From Terriglobia bacterium (GTDB lineage Bacteria; Acidobacteriota; Terriglobia; 20CM-2-55-15): a stretch of 64,000 bases of DNA. The notes under the pieces are model-generated. The model had not been told where the DNA came from and did no database searches. It saw nothing but the letters and a program-made list of their open reading frames with translations. A program made the position numbers and the translations under genes. Below, piece after piece: positions 7,788 to 61,794 of this stretch (the first letter of the stretch is position 1; every line of letters begins with the position of its first letter). Location of the stretch: contig CBDCLE010000004.1 of NCBI GenBank assembly GCA_965218585.1, positions 96,001 to 160,000 on the forward strand, given 5' to 3'.

Positions 7788-7844
7788 GGCCCTCGGGAGG
7801 CAGGTAGTGCGGGATTAGCGTGTGCTGCCCCTGTGTAGTTAGGT

Positions 7845-8117
7845 TTAGGGTTGCGTGGCAGACTCAACAACGGGGCCTACGACGAACCCGTCGTGTTCAA
7901 TGGTCCAGCCAAGATTCCGAAGGACGCTAAACATCTTATTCGGCCCAATTCTTTCCGTGCTCAGAATCTTTCGTAGATGGTCAGGATTAAGCCCCGCCTC
8001 TTCAGCGAATGTGCCTTGATTTCCCCGTCCGCGTACCTCTGATTCTTCTTGCAACCGCGCAATGAAGACAGCGGTCAGAGCATCCGCCAGAGATAGGGAT
8101 GGGGCATGGCTAGACAT
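7845..8117 (-). CDS. Small putative HTH (XRE-like) DNA-binding protein, transposon passenger
   Basis: NQGTFAEEAGLNPDHLRKIL helix-turn-helix-like pattern. Palindrome TTTGTGTAA-N4-TTACACAAA at 8117-8138 abuts its start. Confidence 0.5.
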   Translation of the reverse strand: MSSHAPSLSLADALTAVFIARLQEESEVRGRGNQGTFAEEAGLNPDHLRKILSTERIGPNKMFSVLRNLGWTIEHDGFVVGPVVESATQP

Positions 8118-8281
8118 TTGTGTAAGCTTTTACACAAACTATGAATTGGAGTGTGGGGCCTCAAATCTCCACATACCATATATTCAATAGTTATTGTGGC
8201 GACCATATAGCATTGGACCAGATATGTCTATTTGTGTATTACTATACACAGATAGAGAGCAGTGCGACTGTTACTCTCTTC

Positions 8282-8310
8282 TTGACGGCATGACGACCAA
8301 TGATTACAAT
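8282..8310 (+). promoter_or_regulatory. Near-consensus sigma70 promoter for the PyrF homolog
   Basis: TTGACG-17 nt-TACAAT. Confidence 0.6.
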
Positions 8311-8402
8311 GAGCGATTCCACCGTGCGGGGCCCCCTCTCGTCCCTGTACAATGGTTATTGGGGCAGTTTTTCCTTTCTTCTGCCTTATCTGGGGTGATT
8401 CA

Positions 8403-9173
8403 ATGGCAACAGTCGGCAATGAAGCCCGCCTGAGGCAGGCAGATCCAACTCTGCCCGCCCGCGAGCGGTTGATCGTTGCGCTCGATTTTAACAACCGCGA
8501 CGATGCGCTGGGGCTTGTTGATAAGCTTCAAGGCGAGGTGGAAACCTATAAAGTAGGCTACGAACTCTTTATCTCTGAAGGGCCGCAGATCATTGTGAGT
8601 CTCGTACAGCACCAGAAGAAAGTGTTTCTCGATCTCAAGATGGATGATATTGGTGTCACCATGTCGCGGGCTGTGACTGCAATCAAGACTCTCGGGGTTT
8701 CTTTTCTGACGCTGAAGGGTAATGGAGCGACTGCAAGAGCGGCACGTGAAGGGCGTGGGGCTGGCCCGCCACCGCTTTTCTTGCAGGTCACGTACTTGTC
8801 GAGTCAAGATGAAGCGGACCTGCACGATGAGTATGGTGCGAATATCCCGCTGCAGCAGTTCATCAGGATTCGGGCAGAAAAGATTCTTGAGGCGGGCTGC
8901 GATGGCGTAATCGCTTCAGGTGCAAGCGTTGGGGATCTTCGAGGTTATTTGGATGGCCGCGTTGCTCGGGTGAAGACGCCAACAATCGTTGTTCCTGGTA
9001 TCAGGCCGGAGTGGGCAGAGCCGGACGACCATAAGAGATTCTTGACGCCAACGGATGCCATTCATACCGGTGCCGACTACTTAGTTGTGGGACGGCCGAT
9101 CAGGCATGCATCCGATCCAGCTGATGCAGCCCATCGAATCATCGACGAAATACATAGCGCATCTAACGTATAA
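8403..9173 (+). CDS. pyrF: Orotidine-5'-phosphate decarboxylase homolog (divergent), transposon passenger
   Basis: RLIVALD, YKVG, FLDLKMDDIG (DxKxxD), PGIRP, DYLVVGRPI. ATG 8403 preferred over the longer ORF-track start. Confidence 0.9.
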   Translation: MATVGNEARLRQADPTLPARERLIVALDFNNRDDALGLVDKLQGEVETYKVGYELFISEGPQIIVSLVQHQKKVFLDLKMDDIGVTMSRAVTAIKTLGVSFLTLKGNGATARAAREGRGAGPPPLFLQVTYLSSQDEADLHDEYGANIPLQQFIRIRAEKILEAGCDGVIASGASVGDLRGYLDGRVARVKTPTIVVPGIRPEWAEPDDHKRFLTPTDAIHTGADYLVVGRPIRHASDPADAAHRIIDEIHSASNV

Positions 9174-9180
9174 AGTTTGA

Positions 9181-9270
9181 CGGAGGGGACGGGATTCGAA
9201 CCCGCGAACTGTGGTATCAGCACAGCGCCCGATCCTAAGTCGGGTCGTTTCACCTGACAACAGCCCCTCC
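9181..9270 (-). tRNA. Atypical class II tRNA, anticodon UAG (Leu), Ser-like acceptor/discriminator, no encoded CCA
   Basis: GGAGGGG/CCCCTCC acceptor, CCCGA-CTTAGGA-TCGGG anticodon arm, CTGTG/CACAG variable arm, GCGGG-TTCGAAT-CCCGT T arm, discriminator G, C at position 8. Confidence 0.8.
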
Positions 9271-9331
9271 GTCAATTCCCCACCCTACCCACTCCGCAGT
9301 CACATCCGGTCCATAACTCTCAACTAATAAC

Positions 9332-9360
9332 TTGCATACGGGCGTATCATATGATACATT
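9332..9360 (+). promoter_or_regulatory. Promoter with overlapping palindromic operator for the RHH gene
   Basis: TTGCAT-17 nt-TACATT; perfect palindrome GTATCATATGATAC at 9344-9357; ATG 6 nt after the -10. Confidence 0.6.
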
Positions 9361-9366
9361 ACATAA

Positions 9367-9531
9367 ATGACGACAAAGACTATTAACCTTCGGGACATGC
9401 CAGAAGATCTAGTGAGGAAAGCCAAGGCACACGCGGCACTAGAGGGAATCAGCCTGAAGGCTCTCGTCATTCAGGCCCTAGACCAGGTTGTCCGAGAGGA
9501 AAAGACAGGAAAGAAGATTAAAGAGAAATAG
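9367..9531 (+). CDS. 54-aa ribbon-helix-helix (Arc/CopG-like) regulator, not in the ORF track
   Basis: Manual translation MTTKTINLRDMPEDLVRKAKAHAALEGISLKALVIQALDQVVREE fits the RHH pattern. Confidence 0.75.
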   Translation: MTTKTINLRDMPEDLVRKAKAHAALEGISLKALVIQALDQVVREEKTGKKIKEK

Positions 9532-9957
9532 ATCGGCCCTGCCCGGTGCGACTAACACCAGACAGGGCCTAACTAACTCACGCGATAGAGCCGCATGAGC
9601 CAGCCATCAAACTCATTGTGAACCTGTCCGCGTGGAAAGGCAAGGTTCACAATGACCTGCATCCACTGCCAGCACGACCGAGTTAGAAAGTCCGGCACCT
9701 ACGGTAAGAAACGCATCCAGCGTTACCGTTGCACGTTCTGCGATAAGACCTTCTCAGAAGCCCAAGAAAAGCCTCTCGGAAAGCTCCGTATATCAGTCGA
9801 GAAAGCCGTCCAGATCGTCAATTGCCTCGTCGAAGGTTGCGGTATCCGTGCCACTTCGAGATTGTGTGACGTAGACGCAAAGACGGTTCTTGCCGTACTT
9901 GAGTTGGCCGGAGAACGATGCCAACGGCTCATGGACCGAAAGTTGTACGGCATCAAT

Positions 9958-10995
9958 CGCTTTGACAACGTAAAAAGAGCCCACCCCCGGGTTAATGGTT
10001 TGTAAGTAAATCCGCCGTCGGGGTTGCGGGAAGTGTGGAAGCCGAAAGCTTCCAAGCCGCGGTGGTAACGCGCCGGCTTTGCAGCGGGTTTCCACGGTGG
10101 CGACACTTTCCACAGCCGCTCGCTCGCGTGTGTTTCACGCGGAACCTTGGGCGGACCGGGGTTTCTTCTTCCGTTTGCCCGCGGCACCGAGACTCTCGGT
10201 GAAGCGGATACTTTCCCAATCGAACTGATGAATCGCACAGTGATGGGTCAATCGGTCCAGCAGGGCCGCGGTCAGGGCGGCATCGCCGAACACGCTGGTC
10301 CACTGCGCAAACGGCAGGTTCGACGTCACGATGAGGGAACCCTTTTCGTACCGGTCCGAGAAGACCTGAAACAGCAACTGGGCACCCTCGGCCGAGAACG
10401 GGATATAGCCGACCTCGTCGACGATGAGCAGCTCGAAGCGGGACAACTTCGCCAGTTGCCGCTTCAACTGTCGCTCCTCACGGGACTCGATCAGCGTATT
10501 GACCCGCCCCGCGGCCGTGGTGAACCCGACGCGGTAGCCCCTCCGGCAGGCTTCCACGCCCAGCACCGTCGCGGCGTGGGTCTTGCCGGTGCCGTGCTTG
10601 CCCAACAGCACGACGTTCTCGCACCGGGTGATGGTGTCGCACTCGGCCGGCTGCTCCCGATCGGCCCGCAGCCAGCCCTCCACGATCCCGGCCACCGGGT
10701 CCATCACCGGACAGGCCGGCTCCTTCTCCCGCCGATACTTCGGCTCCTGGCCGGCCAATACTTTCCGGACCGTCCGTCTCGTGTGCCCGGTCTCCCGGGC
10801 GATCTGTCGAATGCTTTTCTTGTAAACTCGATGTGCGGTCCTGACCATCTCGTACTGATCCATCCCTAACAACTCCTTATCCTCCCTCCGCCATGCCGGT
10901 TCATCCAGGCACTCGCCGGGGGAGGCTATCAGGGTGGGTCCTTTTTCCTCGATCAGAACCCCGTTTGGTGGGTCCTTTTTACGTTATCGAAATCA
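9958..10995 (-). mobile_element. Internally deleted IS21-family element (in-frame istA 5'-istB 3' fusion, ORF 10135-10872)
   Basis: Imperfect IRs containing AACGTAAAAAG; TSD ATCAAT (9952-9957, 10996-11001). IstA HTH N-terminus fused to IstB motifs GKHGTGKT, LLIVDEVG and LLDRL. Confidence 0.88.
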
Positions 10996-11082
10996 ATCAA
11001 TGCACAGCAGATCCAGTGCGACGAAATTTGGACTTTTGTTCAGAAGAAAGAAAGGCGCATTAAACCTTGGGAGAATGGCAAT

Positions 11083-12447
11083 GAGGTCGTTCCAATCGGT
11101 GTGTAAAAAGAGAAGGCGGTGTACGCTTTCGGTGAATTCGAAACCGTAAGCAATCCCGGCAGCAATCGGGAGAAAGGTACACCACCCATGAAGAAGAAGA
11201 ACATACCGGCATCAGTGGCGTCAACGAACGCGTATGAAGGTTTGGAGGACTGGGCGCGATCCCGGGTCCAAGTCTGGCTACAGGAGCTGCTCGAGGACGA
11301 AGTCACTCAATTTCTGGGTCGGGAAAAGTCGGAGCGGAGTCCGAATCGACGAGGATACCGGAACGGTCACGGGAAACCGCGACGCTTCGCAATGATGAAC
11401 GGTACGATGGAGGTTCGACGACCTCGGGTTCGAAACACCGCCGAGCGGTTCGAGAGTCAGATCCTGCCGTATTTTCGACGGAAATCGAAACAGCTGGGCG
11501 AGCTACTTCCCGATCTCTACCTCCACGGTCTGGCCACAGGGGACTTCGAGCAGGCCATGCGCGGACTGCTTGGCGCTGGCGCTCCGTTGTCGCGAGCATC
11601 GATCCAACGACTGAAATCGACCTGGCAGTTGGAGTATGACGAGTGGGTCCAGCAGGACCTGTCCGGCCTCGAGGTCGTGTACCAGTGGGCAGACGGCTTG
11701 TACGTGAAAGCGGGGATCGCGAAAGAGCGAGCGGCATTGCTGGTGATCATCGGAGCCTTGTCAGACGGGCGCAAAGTGCTGTTGGCCTGTGAGAGCGGGC
11801 AGCGGGAAAGCAAGGAGTCCTGGAGCCGCATTCTGCGCAATCTCCAGAGACGGGGCCTGAAGCTGGGACGGCTGACTGTCGCGGACGGTCACCTGGGCAT
11901 CTGGTCCGCGCTGGCCGAGCAACAGCCCCAGGGCCAGGAACAACGCTGCTGGAACCACAAGTCGATCAACGTGGTCGATCATCTGCCGAAGACCGAGCAG
12001 CCCGCGGCCAGACAGCTGCTTCATGGGATGGCCTTCGCGAACTCCCGCGCGGCCTGCGAACGAAAGCGGGATCAGTTCGTCCGCCGATATGAGAAGAACT
12101 ATCCCAAAGCGGGTGAGACGCTGTTGCGGGACTGGGACCGGATGATTACTTTCTATGAGTTCCCGAAACAACACTGGGTGCATCTGAGAACAACCAACAT
12201 CGTCGAATCGCCCTTCGACATGGTTCGCCTCCGCACCAACGCCGCTCGCCGATTCAAGCGTGTCGAGAATGCAACGGCAATGATCTGGAAGCTACTACGT
12301 GTCGCTGAGAAGGCTTGGCGACACTTAAAAGGATCCGAACTCTTACAAGAGGTCTATGATGGTCAGCAATTCGCTGACGGCATCAGAGTCGTGATGAAAT
12401 CGAAGGCCGCCGCCTGATGACTTTTACACACCTTTTGTAATAACCTC
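11083..12447 (+). mobile_element. IS256-family element, transposase about 11188-12417
   Basis: IRs GAGGT...GGTGTGTAAAA; TSD ATGGCAAT; motifs YRNGH, WADGLY, QRCWNHK, LRTTNIVES. Confidence 0.92.
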
Positions 12448-12674
12448 ATGGCAATGAGATCGGAAGCCAGTACGTTTTCGTGGCGTTTGACCGTGACTCG
12501 AAACTCGCTATCAACCACACGATAGGAAAGCGTAGCCCAGCTACAACCCGTCAATTCGTGGGTGACCTGAAACGCCGTGTCAGTGGGAGGGTGCAAATCA
12601 GCACAGACGGATTTGGAGCTTATCTTGGCGCAATCGAGGATACGTTCGGGGCCAACGTCGATTACGCTCAACTA

Positions 12675-13488
12675 GAGCGTGTTAACACTAATGTAGTGCC
12701 TCGACGATGAGTGCGAAGTGAAGGAAAGCGAGGAACATGACGTCGAGTTTATCGAAACGGGAGAAGATACGCCGAAAATCCTTGAGTCGGCGGAAGAGCC
12801 TCTCGACTTCGTTCCTGCGGCGGTAGAGCACGCGGTCGTATTCCCACGGCTCCAGGCGGTTGCGCTTGGGCGGCACGACGGGAATCCACCCAAAATCCAG
12901 AGCCAATTGGCGGGTCTGGTCGTCCTGGTAGGCACGGTCCATCAGCAGCGGCAGTGGCGCGGGCAACGGCCCCAGGCCGGCGAGCAGATCGCGGCCCTGC
13001 GGGGCGTCGTGCGCTTGGCCGGGCGAGAGCGCAAACGTTATCGCCGTTCGAGCATTCGCGGCAACCAGATGAATCTTGGTGGTCCATCCACCGCGGGATT
13101 TGCCGATCGCTTGCGGACCGTTTTTTTTAACGCTCCCGTGCCGTCGGGATGCACCTTCACAATGGTCGAGTCCATCGAAACGGCTTCCACCCGGATGCGC
13201 ACCAGTTGCTCGCGCTGGAGTTTTTCGAAGACGGCGTCGAGCACCCCGTTCTTGGACCAGCGGTTCATCCGGGTGTAGATGGTGTGCCAGTTGCCAAAGC
13301 GCTTGGGCAGACCGCGCCACTTGCAGCCCTGCTCAGCCACATACAAAATGGCGTTCAAGACCGTCAGGTTCGAAAGACTGACGTTGCCCCGCCGACGCGG
13401 CAGTTCCGGCTCGATGCGACAATACTGCTCCTGTGTGATCTCCATGCCTGATTATAAAACATTCATGCTCATTAGTGTTAACACACCC
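12675..13488 (-). mobile_element. IS5-family (IS427-like) element; two ORFs (13038-13445; about 13130 to 12688) joined by a probable programmed frameshift at an A8 run (13121-13128)
   Basis: IRs containing GTGTTAACACTAATG; TA duplication; motifs GCKWRGLP, SRGGWTTKIH, YRRRNEVERLF. Confidence 0.9.
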
Positions 13489-13833
13489 TAGTGAAGGTCT
13501 ACCAGAATGAACCCGCAAGGCGAGGACGTTATGCCCCATCGAAGTTCGTCCGGGCGATCTCAACCACCATATCGGGCAATCCCGATCCCAAGCTCATCTG
13601 TACGTCCCACGTCGAACGATGCAATCTCACTATGCGCACCTTCATGCGGCGATTGACGCGCCTATGCCTCGGATTCTCGAAGAAGTTGGACAATCTGAAA
13701 GCCGCAGTCGCATTGCATTTCGCGTGGTACAACTTCTGCCGGGTTCACAGGAGCCTTCGGGTGACTCCTTGTATGGAGGCTGGGTTGGAGGATCATATCT
13801 GGACGATTGAGGAGCTAATCGCATGAGATACTA

Positions 13834-15072
13834 CTACTATGTTACAAACGGTCTATTTTATGTTAGCATCCGGTCATGAGCGCCAAATCGAAGGCGCCAG
13901 GCACTCAGGAAAAACGTTTTGCGGCCTATTTGGAACGCCTGGCGTCGGCCGCAGGACACGCCGATCGTCATGAACCGTTGAAGTCGTACTGCACCGGGTT
14001 GTTGCTGCCGATCAAACGTAAGAGTGTGGAGCCGATGGCTGCACGATTGGCTCCGGATAATGTACGCCGAATGCACCAGTCGCTACATCATCTGGTCGCG
14101 GATGCGCCCTGGGACGATGCGGCTCTGTTGGCAGAAGTTCGACAGTACGCGCTGGGGGCGATGGAAGCCAACGGTCCGATTGAAGCCTGGATTGTCGACG
14201 ACACCGGATTCGTGAAAAAGGGGACCCACTCGGTGGGTGTGGCCCGGCAATACTGTGGACAGGTCGGCAAACCTGAGAACTGCCGGGTGGCGGTGAGCCT
14301 GTCGGTGGCGACAGCGAAATCCAGCTTGCCGGTGGCATGGCGACTCTACCTCCCCGAGACCTGGGCGAAGGATCCGGAACGTCGAAGCAAAGCCGCTATT
14401 CCCGAAGACGTTCGATTTCAAACTAAACCTCAAATTGCTTTGGAACAAATCCGGCAGGCCGTCGATGACGGCATTGCTCCGGCACCGGTTCTGGGCGATA
14501 CGGCCTACGGCAACAACTACAAGTTCCGGCACGGCATCACCGAACTCGGACTTAGCTACGTCCTAGGGGTGCAAGGCACCACGACCGTGTGGAAACCGGG
14601 CCAGGGTCCCTTGCCGCCGAAATCCTTGACCGGCCGCGGACGGACACCGACCCGCATGCAGCGCAACAAGAAACATCAACCGGTTTCGGTCAAGCAACTG
14701 GCCCTCTCGTTGTCTCCCCAGCGTTGGAAGAACGTCTCCTGGCGCGAAGGCACCTCCGAGACCCTGCGTTCCCGTTTCGCCGCAGTTCGCATTCGTCCCG
14801 CTCATCTGGATCACGAGCGCCACTCGCCGCATCCGAAAGAGTGGTTGTTGGTCGCCGAGCGGAGCTGTTTTTCCCCCTCTGCATTTGTCGAGCATGTTGG
14901 ACTATCCGTCCCCAAACTCCCCAAACACTTCAAACCCCGCAGAACCCCGGATCCGGCCCGAACGACATAACCCCTGCTCGATTGCCACGCTTCGCATTCG
15001 CATCGCCCGCTTCCTGATTCAGCAGCTTCCTCATTGTCCGTTCTGTGGACCGCTTCGTTTATAACACAGTAG
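13834..15072 (+). mobile_element. IS701-family element copy 1; transposase 13876-14970 with a 3' internal deletion
   Basis: IRs CTACT(A/G)TGTTA(C/T)AAACG; TSD TACTA; motifs VDDTGFVKKG and ARQYCG. Lacks the RWIIERDYQELK segment present in copy 2. Confidence 0.9.
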
Positions 15073-15119
15073 TACTACAAGGGCTACAGGAAAAAAATAT
15101 CAGAACAAAAGCACACGCT

Positions 15120-16752
15120 GATATGGATTGACCCTGTCAAGCTTCCGTTACGTTTCTCGAATGCGCCTCCTTCAATGTGCTGGATTCAGGGCGCGGCCGG
15201 CATGATTCGCGACGGTGGATCACTCTGATATTCGTGGGTTGGCTACCACCTGACATCACTTCGTCGCGGAGCTGCCTCGGTCTAAGGACGTGGGTCGGTC
15301 TGGCTGAGCCAAGCCTCTCATAGCGTGCACGAGGATTCTCCTCACCGGCCTGCCACGCCCTGAATCCAACACATTACGTTTTTTGGGTCCAGCCTTGCTC
15401 CGGAAGCGCATGATGGCATTGCGCCCGGGGAGGCGTCGGAGGAGTTTTCCACACCTTGTCCATGGCACCGCGTGCTTCGAATACACGGCGGAGCAGTGGC
15501 AAGGTGTGGAGAACTCCGGCCCATCTCTCAGCTCCGCGCCCGCGTTGCATGGGCTCGGCCCATCACCTCGCAAGCAATCGCCCAGATGAACCCCACCAGC
15601 TCGCGGGCCACCGCGGTGGTGACCACGCACTTCGCCTTGCCCGCGCTATACAGATGCCGGTACCGCGCACACAGCCGCTTCTGGGCTGCCCAGGCGATGG
15701 CCTGCACTGCTGGCGGCGCCGCACTCGCCTTGCATCTCAAGTGCCTGGTTTTGCGCGCAGGGAACCGGTAGCTCCAGGCCGATTCAACCAGCACGCGGCG
15801 CACGTGTCCATTGCCTGTTTTCGTGATGGCTCCTTGGCGCCGCCGCGGCCCCGAGGAGTGCTCGCTCGGCACCAGCCCCAGAAAGCTCATCAGCTCGCGC
15901 GGCGAATCAAAACGCGTCAGGTCCCCGAGTTCGGCCAGCACCGTCATGGCCGTGACCACATCCACCCCGCGCAACGCGATCAGCGCCTCGACCATCGGAC
16001 GCAGCGACCACCGCTCCAACACCTCGCGCATCTGCCCTTCCAGGCCCGCCACGCGGCGGCGCGCCTCCATCACCGTATCGACGTATTCCTGAAACACCAC
16101 CTGCTGTACCGGATGCTCGAACCGCTGCTCCTCCAGCCACCGAAAGTGCCGTTGCGTCCACCGGCTCTTGCCTTCCCGATACACTCGATCATGACGCAGC
16201 AGAAACACCCCCAGTCGCTGCCGAGCCTTGGCCTCGATCGCCTTCATGTCCTCGCGCGCCCGCGTCAGGTCGCGCATCGCCTCCTGCTCCTCGTCGGGCA
16301 CCCACACCGCCGTCAGCTCCCCCGACCGATGCAGCCGCGCCAGCTTCACCGCGTCGCGCCGATCCGTCTTCACTCGCTCCCCCGCGCGCCGCGGGATCAG
16401 GCTCGGCGCGACCACCTCGCAATAGTGGCCGGTGTCGATGATCTCTCGATACACCCCATACCCGCACGGTCCCGCCTCGTAGCAGAAGCTCAACACCTCT
16501 GCGTGCGGACTCAGGCTGCGAATGAGTCGCAGCAGCGATTTGCGTTGATTCTTGATCTCGCCCCGGTACACCGGCGCCTCACGTCCGGGCAGCGCTACCG
16601 CCACCGCGATCGTGTCCTTGTGAACGTCCAGTCCAACGTATGCACTACACTTGTTCATGACCTGCCCTCCTCGTTGTGGCTCTGTGTCGAAGGTTCCTCG
16701 CCCCGCAACATAACCCACGCGTACGAGGCCAGGGCAGGTCAATCCATGGTGT
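15120..16752 (-). mobile_element. IS110-family (IS1111 group) element inserted in the IRR of the IS1 transposon; transposase about 15528-16658/16742
   Basis: Motifs VGLDVHK, CYEAGP, KTDRRDA, GLVPSEHSSG. Sub-terminal IRs ATGGATTGACC; duplicated CT core at both junctions; about 400-nt non-coding region downstream of the transposase. Confidence 0.92.
15174..15375 (-). ncRNA. Candidate bridge/seek RNA of the IS1111-group element
   Basis: Closing stem (15174-15197 with 15352-15375) encloses four short segments that match target and donor halves in the expected order. Confidence 0.55.
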
Positions 16753-16901
16753 CTAATCCCGCACTACCGGGAGGCAAGAGTTGGCCGTCTTTCGGGGCCT
16801 CTCCGCGCATTTTCCTGGTAGGCGGTGCTGGCACGCCCGGCACCGTTCTTATGAAAGGACTTTCGTCGTTTGGTGGGACCCCTTATCTCCGCAGAAAGGA
16901 G

Positions 16902-39545: not shown

Positions 39546-40858
<1,313 letters not shown>

Positions 40859-58167: not shown

Positions 58168-61794
<3,627 letters not shown>

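Follow-up and report, generated by a model that had tools for sequence, protein, structure and literature searches.

A transfer RNA (tRNA)-like gene of irregular build lies on the minus strand of a 64,000-nucleotide stretch of contig CBDCLE010000004.1 (positions 96,001 to 160,000, assembly GCA_965218585.1) from a Terriglobia bacterium of the phylum Acidobacteriota; the whole stretch is called the window below. ARAGORN made a single tRNA call in these 64 kb, a tRNA-Leu(tag) at 9179-9271 (minus strand), and an earlier note, drawn up from the letters alone, had described the same gene as a tRNA with serine-like identity elements and a leucine anticodon, a candidate mistranslating tRNA. The gene was brought in on mobile DNA as a passenger of an IS1-family transposon, beside a ribbon-helix-helix (RHH) antitoxin gene. 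That it is still a functional mistranslating tRNA, placing serine where leucine is encoded, has in our estimate an even chance. Its parts are given here with tRNA position i corresponding to window position 9271-i on the minus strand.

9181 to 9270, minus strand: irregular class II tRNA-like gene, G1 to G73, 90 nt (ARAGORN, sequence, pair list)
9245 to 9263, minus strand: irregular D region, positions 8-26 (fold energies, family alignment, Rfam Sec alignment)
9271 to 9275, minus strand: 5' leader UUGAC, pairing with G73 plus the trailer (repeat search and fold)
9177 to 9180, minus strand: 3' trailer UCAA, no CCA encoded, pairing together with G73 to the leader (repeat search and fold)

The acceptor strand GGAGGGG (9270-9264) pairs with CCCCUCC (9188-9182) in seven of seven Watson-Crick pairs, and the discriminator, at 9181, is G73. 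Position 8 is C and position 9 is U. The anticodon stem CCCGA/UCGGG carries the loop C32, U33, U34, A35, G36, G37 and A38 (9239-9233) with the UAG anticodon at 9237-9235. The variable arm, positions 45-63 (window 9226-9208), forms a 6-bp stem closed by a 7-nt loop, and the T arm GCGGG-UUCGAAU-CCCGU (9205-9189) contains G49.U65. Across the acceptor, anticodon, variable and T helices all pairs are standard (23/23), and the anticodon and T loops are perfect. In the D region a shifted 4-bp stem can be drawn (U9.G25, G10:C24, U11:A23 and U12:A22), which can be extended past a bulged G13 by U14:A21 and C15:G20 to a 6-bp stem like that of selenocysteine tRNA (tRNA-Sec), closed by the tetraloop AGGU. 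A repeat search returned a perfect 12-nt inverted repeat, TTGACGGAGGGG / CCCCTCCGTCAA, at 9177-9188 and 9264-9275, and leader and trailer therefore add five pairs to the acceptor helix, making 12 bp in total. The anatomy listed in the earlier note, namely the acceptor, G73, the long variable arm, the CU-UAG-GA loop, C8, the odd D arm and the 12-bp helix, was found in full in the minus-strand sequence. The pattern GGAG..CTTAGGA..GGTTCGAATCC matched once in the window and in none of 100 shuffles.

The genome holds a full canonical class II tRNA set that includes a tRNA-Leu(UAG) at C22:103866-103948, which makes the UAG anticodon redundant. At its accepting end (G1:C72, G2:C71, A3:U70 and G73) the irregular gene agrees with the Ser genes of the genome, all four of which start with GGAG and have G1, G2, A3 and G73. 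The five Leu genes all start with GC and carry A73, and the irregular gene does neither, whereas its loop, with UAG, G37 and A38, is of the CUN-reader type. Bacterial leucyl-tRNA synthetase (LeuRS) needs A73. The requirements of seryl-tRNA synthetase (SerRS) are a long variable arm and G73 or U73, according to one report (PMC5389517). Isotype scoring was imitated with covariance models built from the genome's own four Ser and five Leu genes. True Ser tRNAs scored 104-107 bits on the Ser model and 36.3-50.8 on the Leu model, and true Leu tRNAs 43.5-56.0 and 88.4-98.4, respectively; the irregular gene scored 43.3 and 36.1 bits, so that both of its values fall in the cross-isotype range. The Ser model was ahead of the Leu model despite the Leu-type anticodon loop, which lowers the Ser-model score. 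The body is thus neither typical Ser nor typical Leu, and the pointers to serine are the acceptor end and the long arm only. Set against a regular tRNA-Ser, the gene has the Ser-type acceptor, G73 and the long arm, and lacks a Ser anticodon and the canonical body with U8 and a Ser D arm. The claim of a Ser-like identity joined to a Leu anticodon therefore held for the acceptor, G73, the long arm and UAG, and was not borne out by the whole-body scores.

These comparisons also bear on another explanation, in which the gene is a genuine extra leucine tRNA that LeuRS charges despite G73. The class II form and the UAG anticodon with G37 and A38 would suit it, but G73 against the uniform A73 of the Leu genes, an acceptor beginning GGAG rather than GC, and 36.1 bits on a Leu model that gives true Leu tRNAs 88-98 make it very improbable.

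Relatives were collected with a pattern search (GGAG acceptor start, CUUAGGA loop, long arm and GGUUCGAAUCC) over one genome per species, which returned 14 loci. Nine of them combine a class II body, a GGAG acceptor and the anticodon UAG, eight of these with G73, and they belong to four Solirubrobacterales, one Acidobacteriota, three Eremiobacterota/Baltobacteraceae-type bacteria and one member of Saccharibacteria; among the remaining loci, one has a GGGGAGU acceptor with A73 and four form no tRNA in that register. C8, U9, AGGUGA in the D loop and the arm CCCGA-CUUAGGA are common to the Solirubrobacterales genes and the irregular gene, and this type is called C8-U9 below. Canonical Ser bodies with a UAG anticodon, scoring 65-72 bits on the Ser model, were seen in three Eremiobacterota-type metagenome-assembled genomes (L044, L047 and L052, the last with A73) and in one from Saccharibacteria (L050).

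A covariance model built from six sequences was then run on 150 other genomes of the phylum and 150 of the class, and its negative counts include four genomes flagged as unpublished (G058, G083, G241 and G266). In the phylum one gene, from G122, rose above the canonical Ser range with 71.3 bits, while 28 of the 29 best loci were canonical Ser; the best 10 loci in the class comprised eight canonical Ser(UGA), one Ser-like gene with UAU and one locus without a call. The G122 gene has the acceptor AGAGGAG, C8, U9 and the anticodon AAG, encodes CCA straight after G73, and shares the anticodon stem and T arm of the irregular gene. Upstream of it in the tandem (L057 1501-1703), at a distance of 11 nt, is another Ser-type tRNA gene with the same rare anticodon AAG, of canonical body and with a variable arm of 30 nt, which also encodes CCA; a gene for an HNH endonuclease adjoins. 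Among 150 other sampled genomes from the order of a Solirubrobacterales carrier, one more, G782, holds the C8-U9 type; the pairs of its D stem, anticodon stem and T stem are different ones. When metagenomes were scanned for the anticodon arm combined with a long variable arm, 24 loci matched: seven of the C8-U9 type (five distinct sequences, two with anticodon AAG), five canonical Ser bodies with UAG or AAG, and 12 other class II tRNAs with the anticodons UGG, CUG, GUA, UAA or ACG. Viral scans for this type of gene returned no true match, the sole match being a tRNA-Glu. The C8-U9 type is accordingly rare and patchy. All three Solirubrobacterales carriers that were checked also keep a canonical tRNA-Leu(UAG), located in a conserved Leu-Leu-Trp cluster.

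Covariation was assessed over 12 distinct C8-U9 sequences, against a cloverleaf with a 7-bp acceptor, the C8 linker, a D stem of 9-13/22-26, a 6-bp anticodon stem, a variable stem and a 5-bp T stem. In this alignment 92.7% of the cells pair and 10 of the 29 pairs change on both sides, a result reached by none of 500 shuffles and by slid controls only to the extent of 0-5; the structure was derived from the same sequences, which favours it somewhat. Position 50:64 alternates between U:A and C:G across the family, while C8, lying opposite C65 or U65, pairs in none of the 12. Since 50:64 covaries and C8 stays unpaired throughout, the branch of the family is 7/5 and not 8/4 or 9/3, and the comparison of homologs that the earlier note had called for thus supported a 7/5 cloverleaf. 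One copy in the family, L046, has decayed, with an A6.C mismatch and changes in the anticodon stem.

The fold of the irregular gene itself agrees with this branch. The lowest constrained energy was that of a 7/5 fold with the Sec-like D stem and loop AGGU (-35.1 kcal/mol), followed by 7/5 with the 4-bp D stem only (-34.8), by the D stem as drawn by ARAGORN (-34.4), by the 8/4 fold (-33.6) and by the 9/3 fold (-29.5 kcal/mol). G49.U65 and C50:G64 both pair, so 7/5 is the best fit, and the 12-bp branch is not of the 8/4 or 9/3 form that distinguishes allo-tRNAs. In the D arm a 6-bp stem with one bulge can be drawn, where the relatives have a 5-bp stem and an 8-nt loop, and the sixth anticodon-stem pair, formed in the relatives, is A.C. 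The unconstrained minimum lies at -39.3 kcal/mol (z = -2.3) and joins the 5' D strand to the 3' strand of the variable arm. Minimum-energy folding was rejected as a test of function, as five of the ten canonical class II tRNAs of the genome likewise lack a cloverleaf as their minimum.

A true (8/4) or (9/3) allo-tRNA, or a derivative of tRNA-Sec, was weighed on the same data. The best Rfam family is indeed tRNA-Sec (RF01852), at 43.9-45.2 bits, and the 6-bp D stem with AGGU resembles the Sec form. The score is below the gathering cut-off of 47, however, and the anticodon is UAG instead of UCA; the canonical Ser tRNAs of the genome reach about 46 bits on this model and its genuine tRNA-Sec 73.2. 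Together with the unpaired C8, the C:G / U:A covariation at 50:64 and the lower stability of the 8/4 and 9/3 folds, this leaves the proposal hardly credible. The Sec-model match was also discarded as a sign of kinship with allo-tRNAs, given that canonical Ser tRNAs of the same genome score alike.

The two ends of the gene were compared in the same way. It had been suggested that the extended helix might gate maturation, which found no comparative support, as the 5-bp extension is not kept in relatives: the lineage of L045, L049 and L107 has three extra pairs (GAC/GUC), the other relatives have only the -1:73 pair beyond the acceptor, and the four canonical Ser tRNAs of the genome extend the acceptor by at most two pairs. 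The GUCA 3' end reported in the earlier note is present but uninformative, for CCA is encoded in none of the ten canonical class II genes (5 Leu, 4 Ser and 1 Tyr). Among class II genes only tRNA-Sec encodes it, and a rough scan found it in very few of all 51 tRNA genes. GUCA was therefore dismissed as a sign of a defect, genes without CCA being normal in this genome.

The genes and features around the irregular gene, and the corresponding ones in G023, the genome of a sister species with a related island at the same site, are as follows.

7800 to 16900, no strand assigned: island of about 9.1 kb, flanked by the ATP synthase operon and, at its other end, by the bactofilin/parB side (genus comparison)
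7858 to 9329, no strand assigned: 1.47-kb segment unique to the genome, with an open reading frame (ORF) of 90 amino acids, an OMP-decarboxylase-family gene and the tRNA gene (blastn, Pfam)
8352 to 9173, plus strand: OMP-decarboxylase-family gene, its stop 7 nt from G73 (Pfam)
9344 to 9357, no strand assigned: perfect 14-nt palindrome GTATCATATGATAC between the tRNA and RHH genes, kept in G023 (L131 5971-5984)
9346 to 9373, minus strand: weak promoter-like site facing the tRNA gene, TCGTCA, 16 nt, TATGAT (consensus match only, 9/12)
9367 to 9531, plus strand: RHH antitoxin-like gene (FitA-like/HicB), 54 amino acids, divergent from the tRNA gene (Pfam)
9652 to 10005, plus strand: IS1-family transposase, N-terminal part (NF033558 and zinc-binding domain; 35% identity to the L096 transposase)
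13491 to 13826, plus strand: IS1-family transposase, C-terminal part (54% identity over 111 amino acids to residues 175-285 of the L096 transposase, E 2e-40)
L131 3281-3445 and 5738-7261: G023 island features (tandem tRNA-like genes, hicA/RHH and IS1-like transposase)

The gene order, from Pfam and NCBIfam assignments, is ATP synthase (minus strand), the OMP-decarboxylase-family gene (plus), the tRNA gene (minus), the RHH gene (plus) and the N-terminal part of the IS1-family transposase (plus), then an IstB fragment, a Mutator-family transposase, a DDE_Tnp_1 gene, the C-terminal IS1-family part and a DDE_5 transposase, and after these bactofilin, parB, gidB, gidA, mnmE and yidC. The island is absent in the sister species G025 and G026. 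Its unique segment, 7858-9329, found no match in 400 other genomes of the class at E<=1e-10 and no same-site match in G023, G025 or G026, and a search for its donor gave no close match to the OMP-decarboxylase-family protein in the five genomes that hold tRNA relatives. The DNA of the RHH gene and the IS1-like transposase is 82% identical to G023 in the pieces 9330-9926, 11000-11078, 12456-12675 and 13488-13749. The N-terminal part of the transposase is broken off near 9927-9984 by nested insertions, the C-terminal part is collinear with the intact transposase gene of G023, and as the match to G023 falls into four separate pieces, three nested insertions have interrupted the transposase. The mobile-DNA setting is consequently borne out by an island missing from G025 and G026, a split IS1-family transposase and an adjoining toxin-antitoxin remnant.

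Transposons also accompany the relatives. In the 1.5-kb flanks of 11 related loci, scanned with the exception of eight ORFs that overlap the tRNA genes themselves, five loci have a transposase or integrase (two IS1595, two of IS1/IS240 type and one phage integrase), one has an HNH gene and one a restriction-endonuclease domain.

At the same site G023 has a 4.5-kb island, inverted and partly homologous. It carries an intact IS1-like transposase, an IS256-type transposase, the RHH gene with a toxin gene, hicA, immediately upstream of it, and a tandem pair of tRNA-like genes. The first tRNA-like gene is irregular and was missed by ARAGORN; the second has GGAGAGG/G73, U8-A9, a long variable arm and the UAG anticodon. 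A scan of the family's 35 genomes met the Ser-type/UAG pattern in G023 and in the genome under study (G000) only, the third match being a tRNA-Glu region. Homology to G023 begins at 9330, where hicA would end, so the RHH gene is an orphan and the tRNA gene takes the place of the toxin on the other strand. About 70 nt separate the promoter-like site from G1, which lies downstream of it; the -10 of the site falls inside the palindrome, likely the operator of the RHH protein. Only two weak homologues of the 54-residue RHH protein were found in 400 genomes of the phylum.

This arrangement raises the question of a role other than decoding. A tRNA-shaped RNA might serve as a decoy or substitute target for an anticodon nuclease, or as a regulatory or addiction RNA of the RHH/HicA-type module or of the transposon. 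The divergent orientation of the tRNA and RHH genes, with the palindrome overlapping the tRNA-facing -10, would accord with such a job, and some allo-tRNAs have been suggested to be regulatory or linked to toxin-antitoxin systems (PMC5389517). The anticodon arm CCCGA-CUNAGGA-UCGGG is moreover identical on differing bodies, namely those of the irregular gene, both G122 tRNAs, L088 and L096, though the metagenome search required that arm. Against this, none of the 11 related loci has an adjoining RHH or antitoxin match, the RHH gene of G023 is paired with an ordinary hicA while the tRNAs lie 2.5 kb off, and no anticodon nuclease was found in the island by Pfam, NCBIfam and PADLOC scans, which renders a non-decoding job doubtful. 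A bolder possibility is that the genus site keeps a module of Ser-type tRNA(UAG) genes, a HicA/RHH pair and an IS1-like transposase, in which the tRNA of the genome under study would be an RNA toxin that mistranslates leucine as serine and is repressed by the RHH protein through the palindrome over the -10, for addiction to the element or abortive infection. We regard this as a long shot.

The interpretation that we favour remains a functional Leu-to-Ser mistranslating tRNA carried by an IS1-family transposon. The gene would be transcribed, perhaps from the promoter-like site about 70 nt upstream, and its transcript would be cleaved by RNase P, trimmed at the 3' end and given CCA in the way of the genome's other tRNAs. 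The single SerRS, encoded in the C1:4582-4890 region and indifferent to the anticodon, would charge it with serine, which would then be put at CUA codons and, by U34 wobble, perhaps at CUG codons too. CUA is used 3.3 times per 1000 codons (3.4% of Leu codons) and CUG 37.8 times per 1000. By analogy, the gene should work like an allo-tRNA, though it is not one by shape.

A number of observations weigh against this interpretation. The unconstrained fold of lowest energy departs from the cloverleaf (-39.3 against -35.1 kcal/mol), as it also does in five of the ten canonical class II tRNAs, C8 replaces the near-universal U8, and the Ser-model score of 43.3 bits is no higher than those of true Leu tRNAs, meaning that the body is not Ser-like. 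On the general tRNA model RF00005 the gene has 26.0 bits, which is below the 29-bit gathering cut-off and the minimum of the genome, whose other 48 tRNA matches span 36.3-73.6 bits and whose canonical Ser and Leu tRNAs reach 49-59. It is an outlier of its own family, keeping two of the five pairs of the D-stem register (U9:A26 and U12:A23) and breaking three. BLAST of 116 nt in 34 family genomes, among which were four from the genus, gave matches in three, limited to the T arm, and the covariance model found no close homologue besides the G122 gene in the 150 phylum and 150 class genomes. The transposon is dead, and the hicA partner of the RHH gene has been lost. Four sequencing runs were available as assembled contigs only; one contains the stretch whole, being probably its source, and two contain parts of it with no differences. 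The sole RNA run, whose contigs are uninformative on transcription, holds an identical 216-nt piece of the OMP-decarboxylase-family gene and covers the tRNA gene with nothing but T-arm pieces that belong to other organisms and have 3-5 mismatches. In addition, no activity was seen in E. coli for six allo-tRNA(UAU) species (PMC5389517).

Several of these points would be explained if the gene were a relic, that is, a once-functional transposon passenger tRNA that is no longer expressed or folding and is drifting to a pseudogene. This view stays a strong one because the D arm is weak, the transposon is dead and no close relative was found, and the decay of L046 shows that copies of the family do degenerate. 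On the other hand, plain decay is disfavoured by the standard pairs in all four other helices (23/23) and by the perfect anticodon and T loops, as random decay would not hit one helix and spare four; a contiguous 4-bp D stem also forms, its register shifted by one. We therefore consider a relic possible rather than probable.

The comparison with known systems draws on PMC5389517, PMC7609411, PMC7590224 and PMC11415595. The allo-tRNAs of Acidobacteria described by Mukai et al. (2017, NAR 45:2776; PMC5389517) include an (8/4) allo-tRNA(GAG) and a (9/3) allo-tRNA(UAA) of S. bohemicum, which in E. coli inserted serine at CUC and UUA and on induction were toxic, with growth arrest. Genes of this kind lie near toxin-antitoxin systems and transposon genes, and the same source also lists (9/3) species whose anticodons read CUA/CUG. 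What an allo-tRNA inserts, serine or alanine, is set by its identity elements and not by its anticodon. The irregular gene resembles them in G73, the long variable arm, a Leu and hence non-Ser anticodon, and the neighbourhood of an RHH gene and an IS1-family transposase, and its expected action, serine at Leu codons, would be alike; the C8-U9 relatives further resemble them in a longer D stem and anticodon stem. It differs in its 7/5 branch, single C8 linker, A.C at the sixth anticodon-stem pair and re-registered D stem, a distinction made by description and not by sequence (PMC5389517). The 'irregular tRNAs' of soil metatranscriptomes, 7/5 and 8/4 polycistrons covered in the same report, share 7/5 bodies, mismatched identity, a toxin-antitoxin link and a tandem arrangement, the last seen here in G122 and G023. 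Those described have G-1/His identity or an extra loop and Thr or other anticodons, whereas the gene here is single and has Ser-type ends.

The tRNA-Ser(CAG) of the yeast CUG-Ser clades is likewise Ser-charged, with a Leu CUN anticodon and G37, and in some species occurs beside tRNA-Leu, giving ambiguous decoding (PMC11415595). In contrast to the gene in the window, it is eukaryotic and chromosomal, has a canonical Ser body and serves a fixed reassignment rather than being a mobile extra gene. Closer at hand are the Ser-type tRNAs of canonical body with Leu anticodons (L088, L096, L089, L091, L097 and the upstream gene of G122). In L088 and L096 the anticodon arm and the T arm match those of the irregular gene at every position (17/17 nt each); both loci carry GGAGAGG/G73 and adjoin a homologous IS1-like transposase. 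The set differs from the irregular gene in having U8-G9 and a Ser-type D arm and in scoring higher on the Ser model, with 68-75 bits as opposed to 43.3. The kind, Ser identity with a Leu anticodon in a mobile setting, is thus a known one, and the gene falls outside the 8/4-9/3 definition of allo-tRNAs.

What the locus adds is a 7/5, C8-type body beside the known 8/4 and 9/3 allo-tRNAs, and a tie between such tRNAs and IS1- and IS1595-family transposons, which carry them as passengers. Two sister species with differing Ser-type tRNA(UAG) genes at one site form a pair for asking whether selection keeps them. Changes of the genetic code and deliberate mistranslation draw on natural tRNAs whose identity and anticodon do not match, and code expansion has used such tRNAs as a chassis. 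The existing picture is unchanged by these findings, and the window copy may be dead.

Some further features of the window were recorded. The OMP-decarboxylase-family gene beside the tRNA gene is a divergent second copy, with 42% identity to the one at C2:211926-213282; the latter is the copy shared by the genus, and an RHH homologue (44% identity) adjoins it. A perfect 13-nt inverted repeat, 9613-9625 / 9643-9655, lies just upstream of the start of the IS1-family transposase. The stretch 9957-10134 contains a short repeat, from about 9957, of which the genome has five further copies and whose depth in the sequencing runs is very high. PADLOC gave no matches for four island proteins. Matches to the ALIL pseudoknot, a frameshift element of the IS3 family, were found at 39878-39994 (plus strand) and 60723-60839 (minus strand), both with 100.6 bits.

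Other tRNA genes with unusual combinations of body and anticodon were met during the comparisons. Among the metagenome loci, L087, L092, L098, L099, L100-L102, L104, L106 and L105 have the CCCGA/UCGGG stem with Pro (UGG), Gln (CUG) or Arg (ACG) anticodons, some of them with a Leu-type D arm and A73. L112 (1501-1588), from G260 of the same class, has the Ser-type acceptor GGAGGGG, G73 and a 7/5 class II form with the Ile anticodon UAU. In the genome under study, C22:178573-178661 (L146) is a class II tRNA-like gene of 89 nt that has a long variable arm and U73 and scores 36.3 bits on the Rfam tRNA model; in its anticodon loop, CC-UGC-AA, C33 replaces U33. A gene at C19:34293-34378 (L145) has a canonical Ser-type body with the acceptor GGAGAGG, U73 and the Arg anticodon UCU, scoring 80.9 bits on the Ser model, 46.1 on the Leu model and 62.1 on the Rfam tRNA model; with a normal tRNA-Arg(UCU) present on C24, it is a second mis-wired tRNA of this genome.

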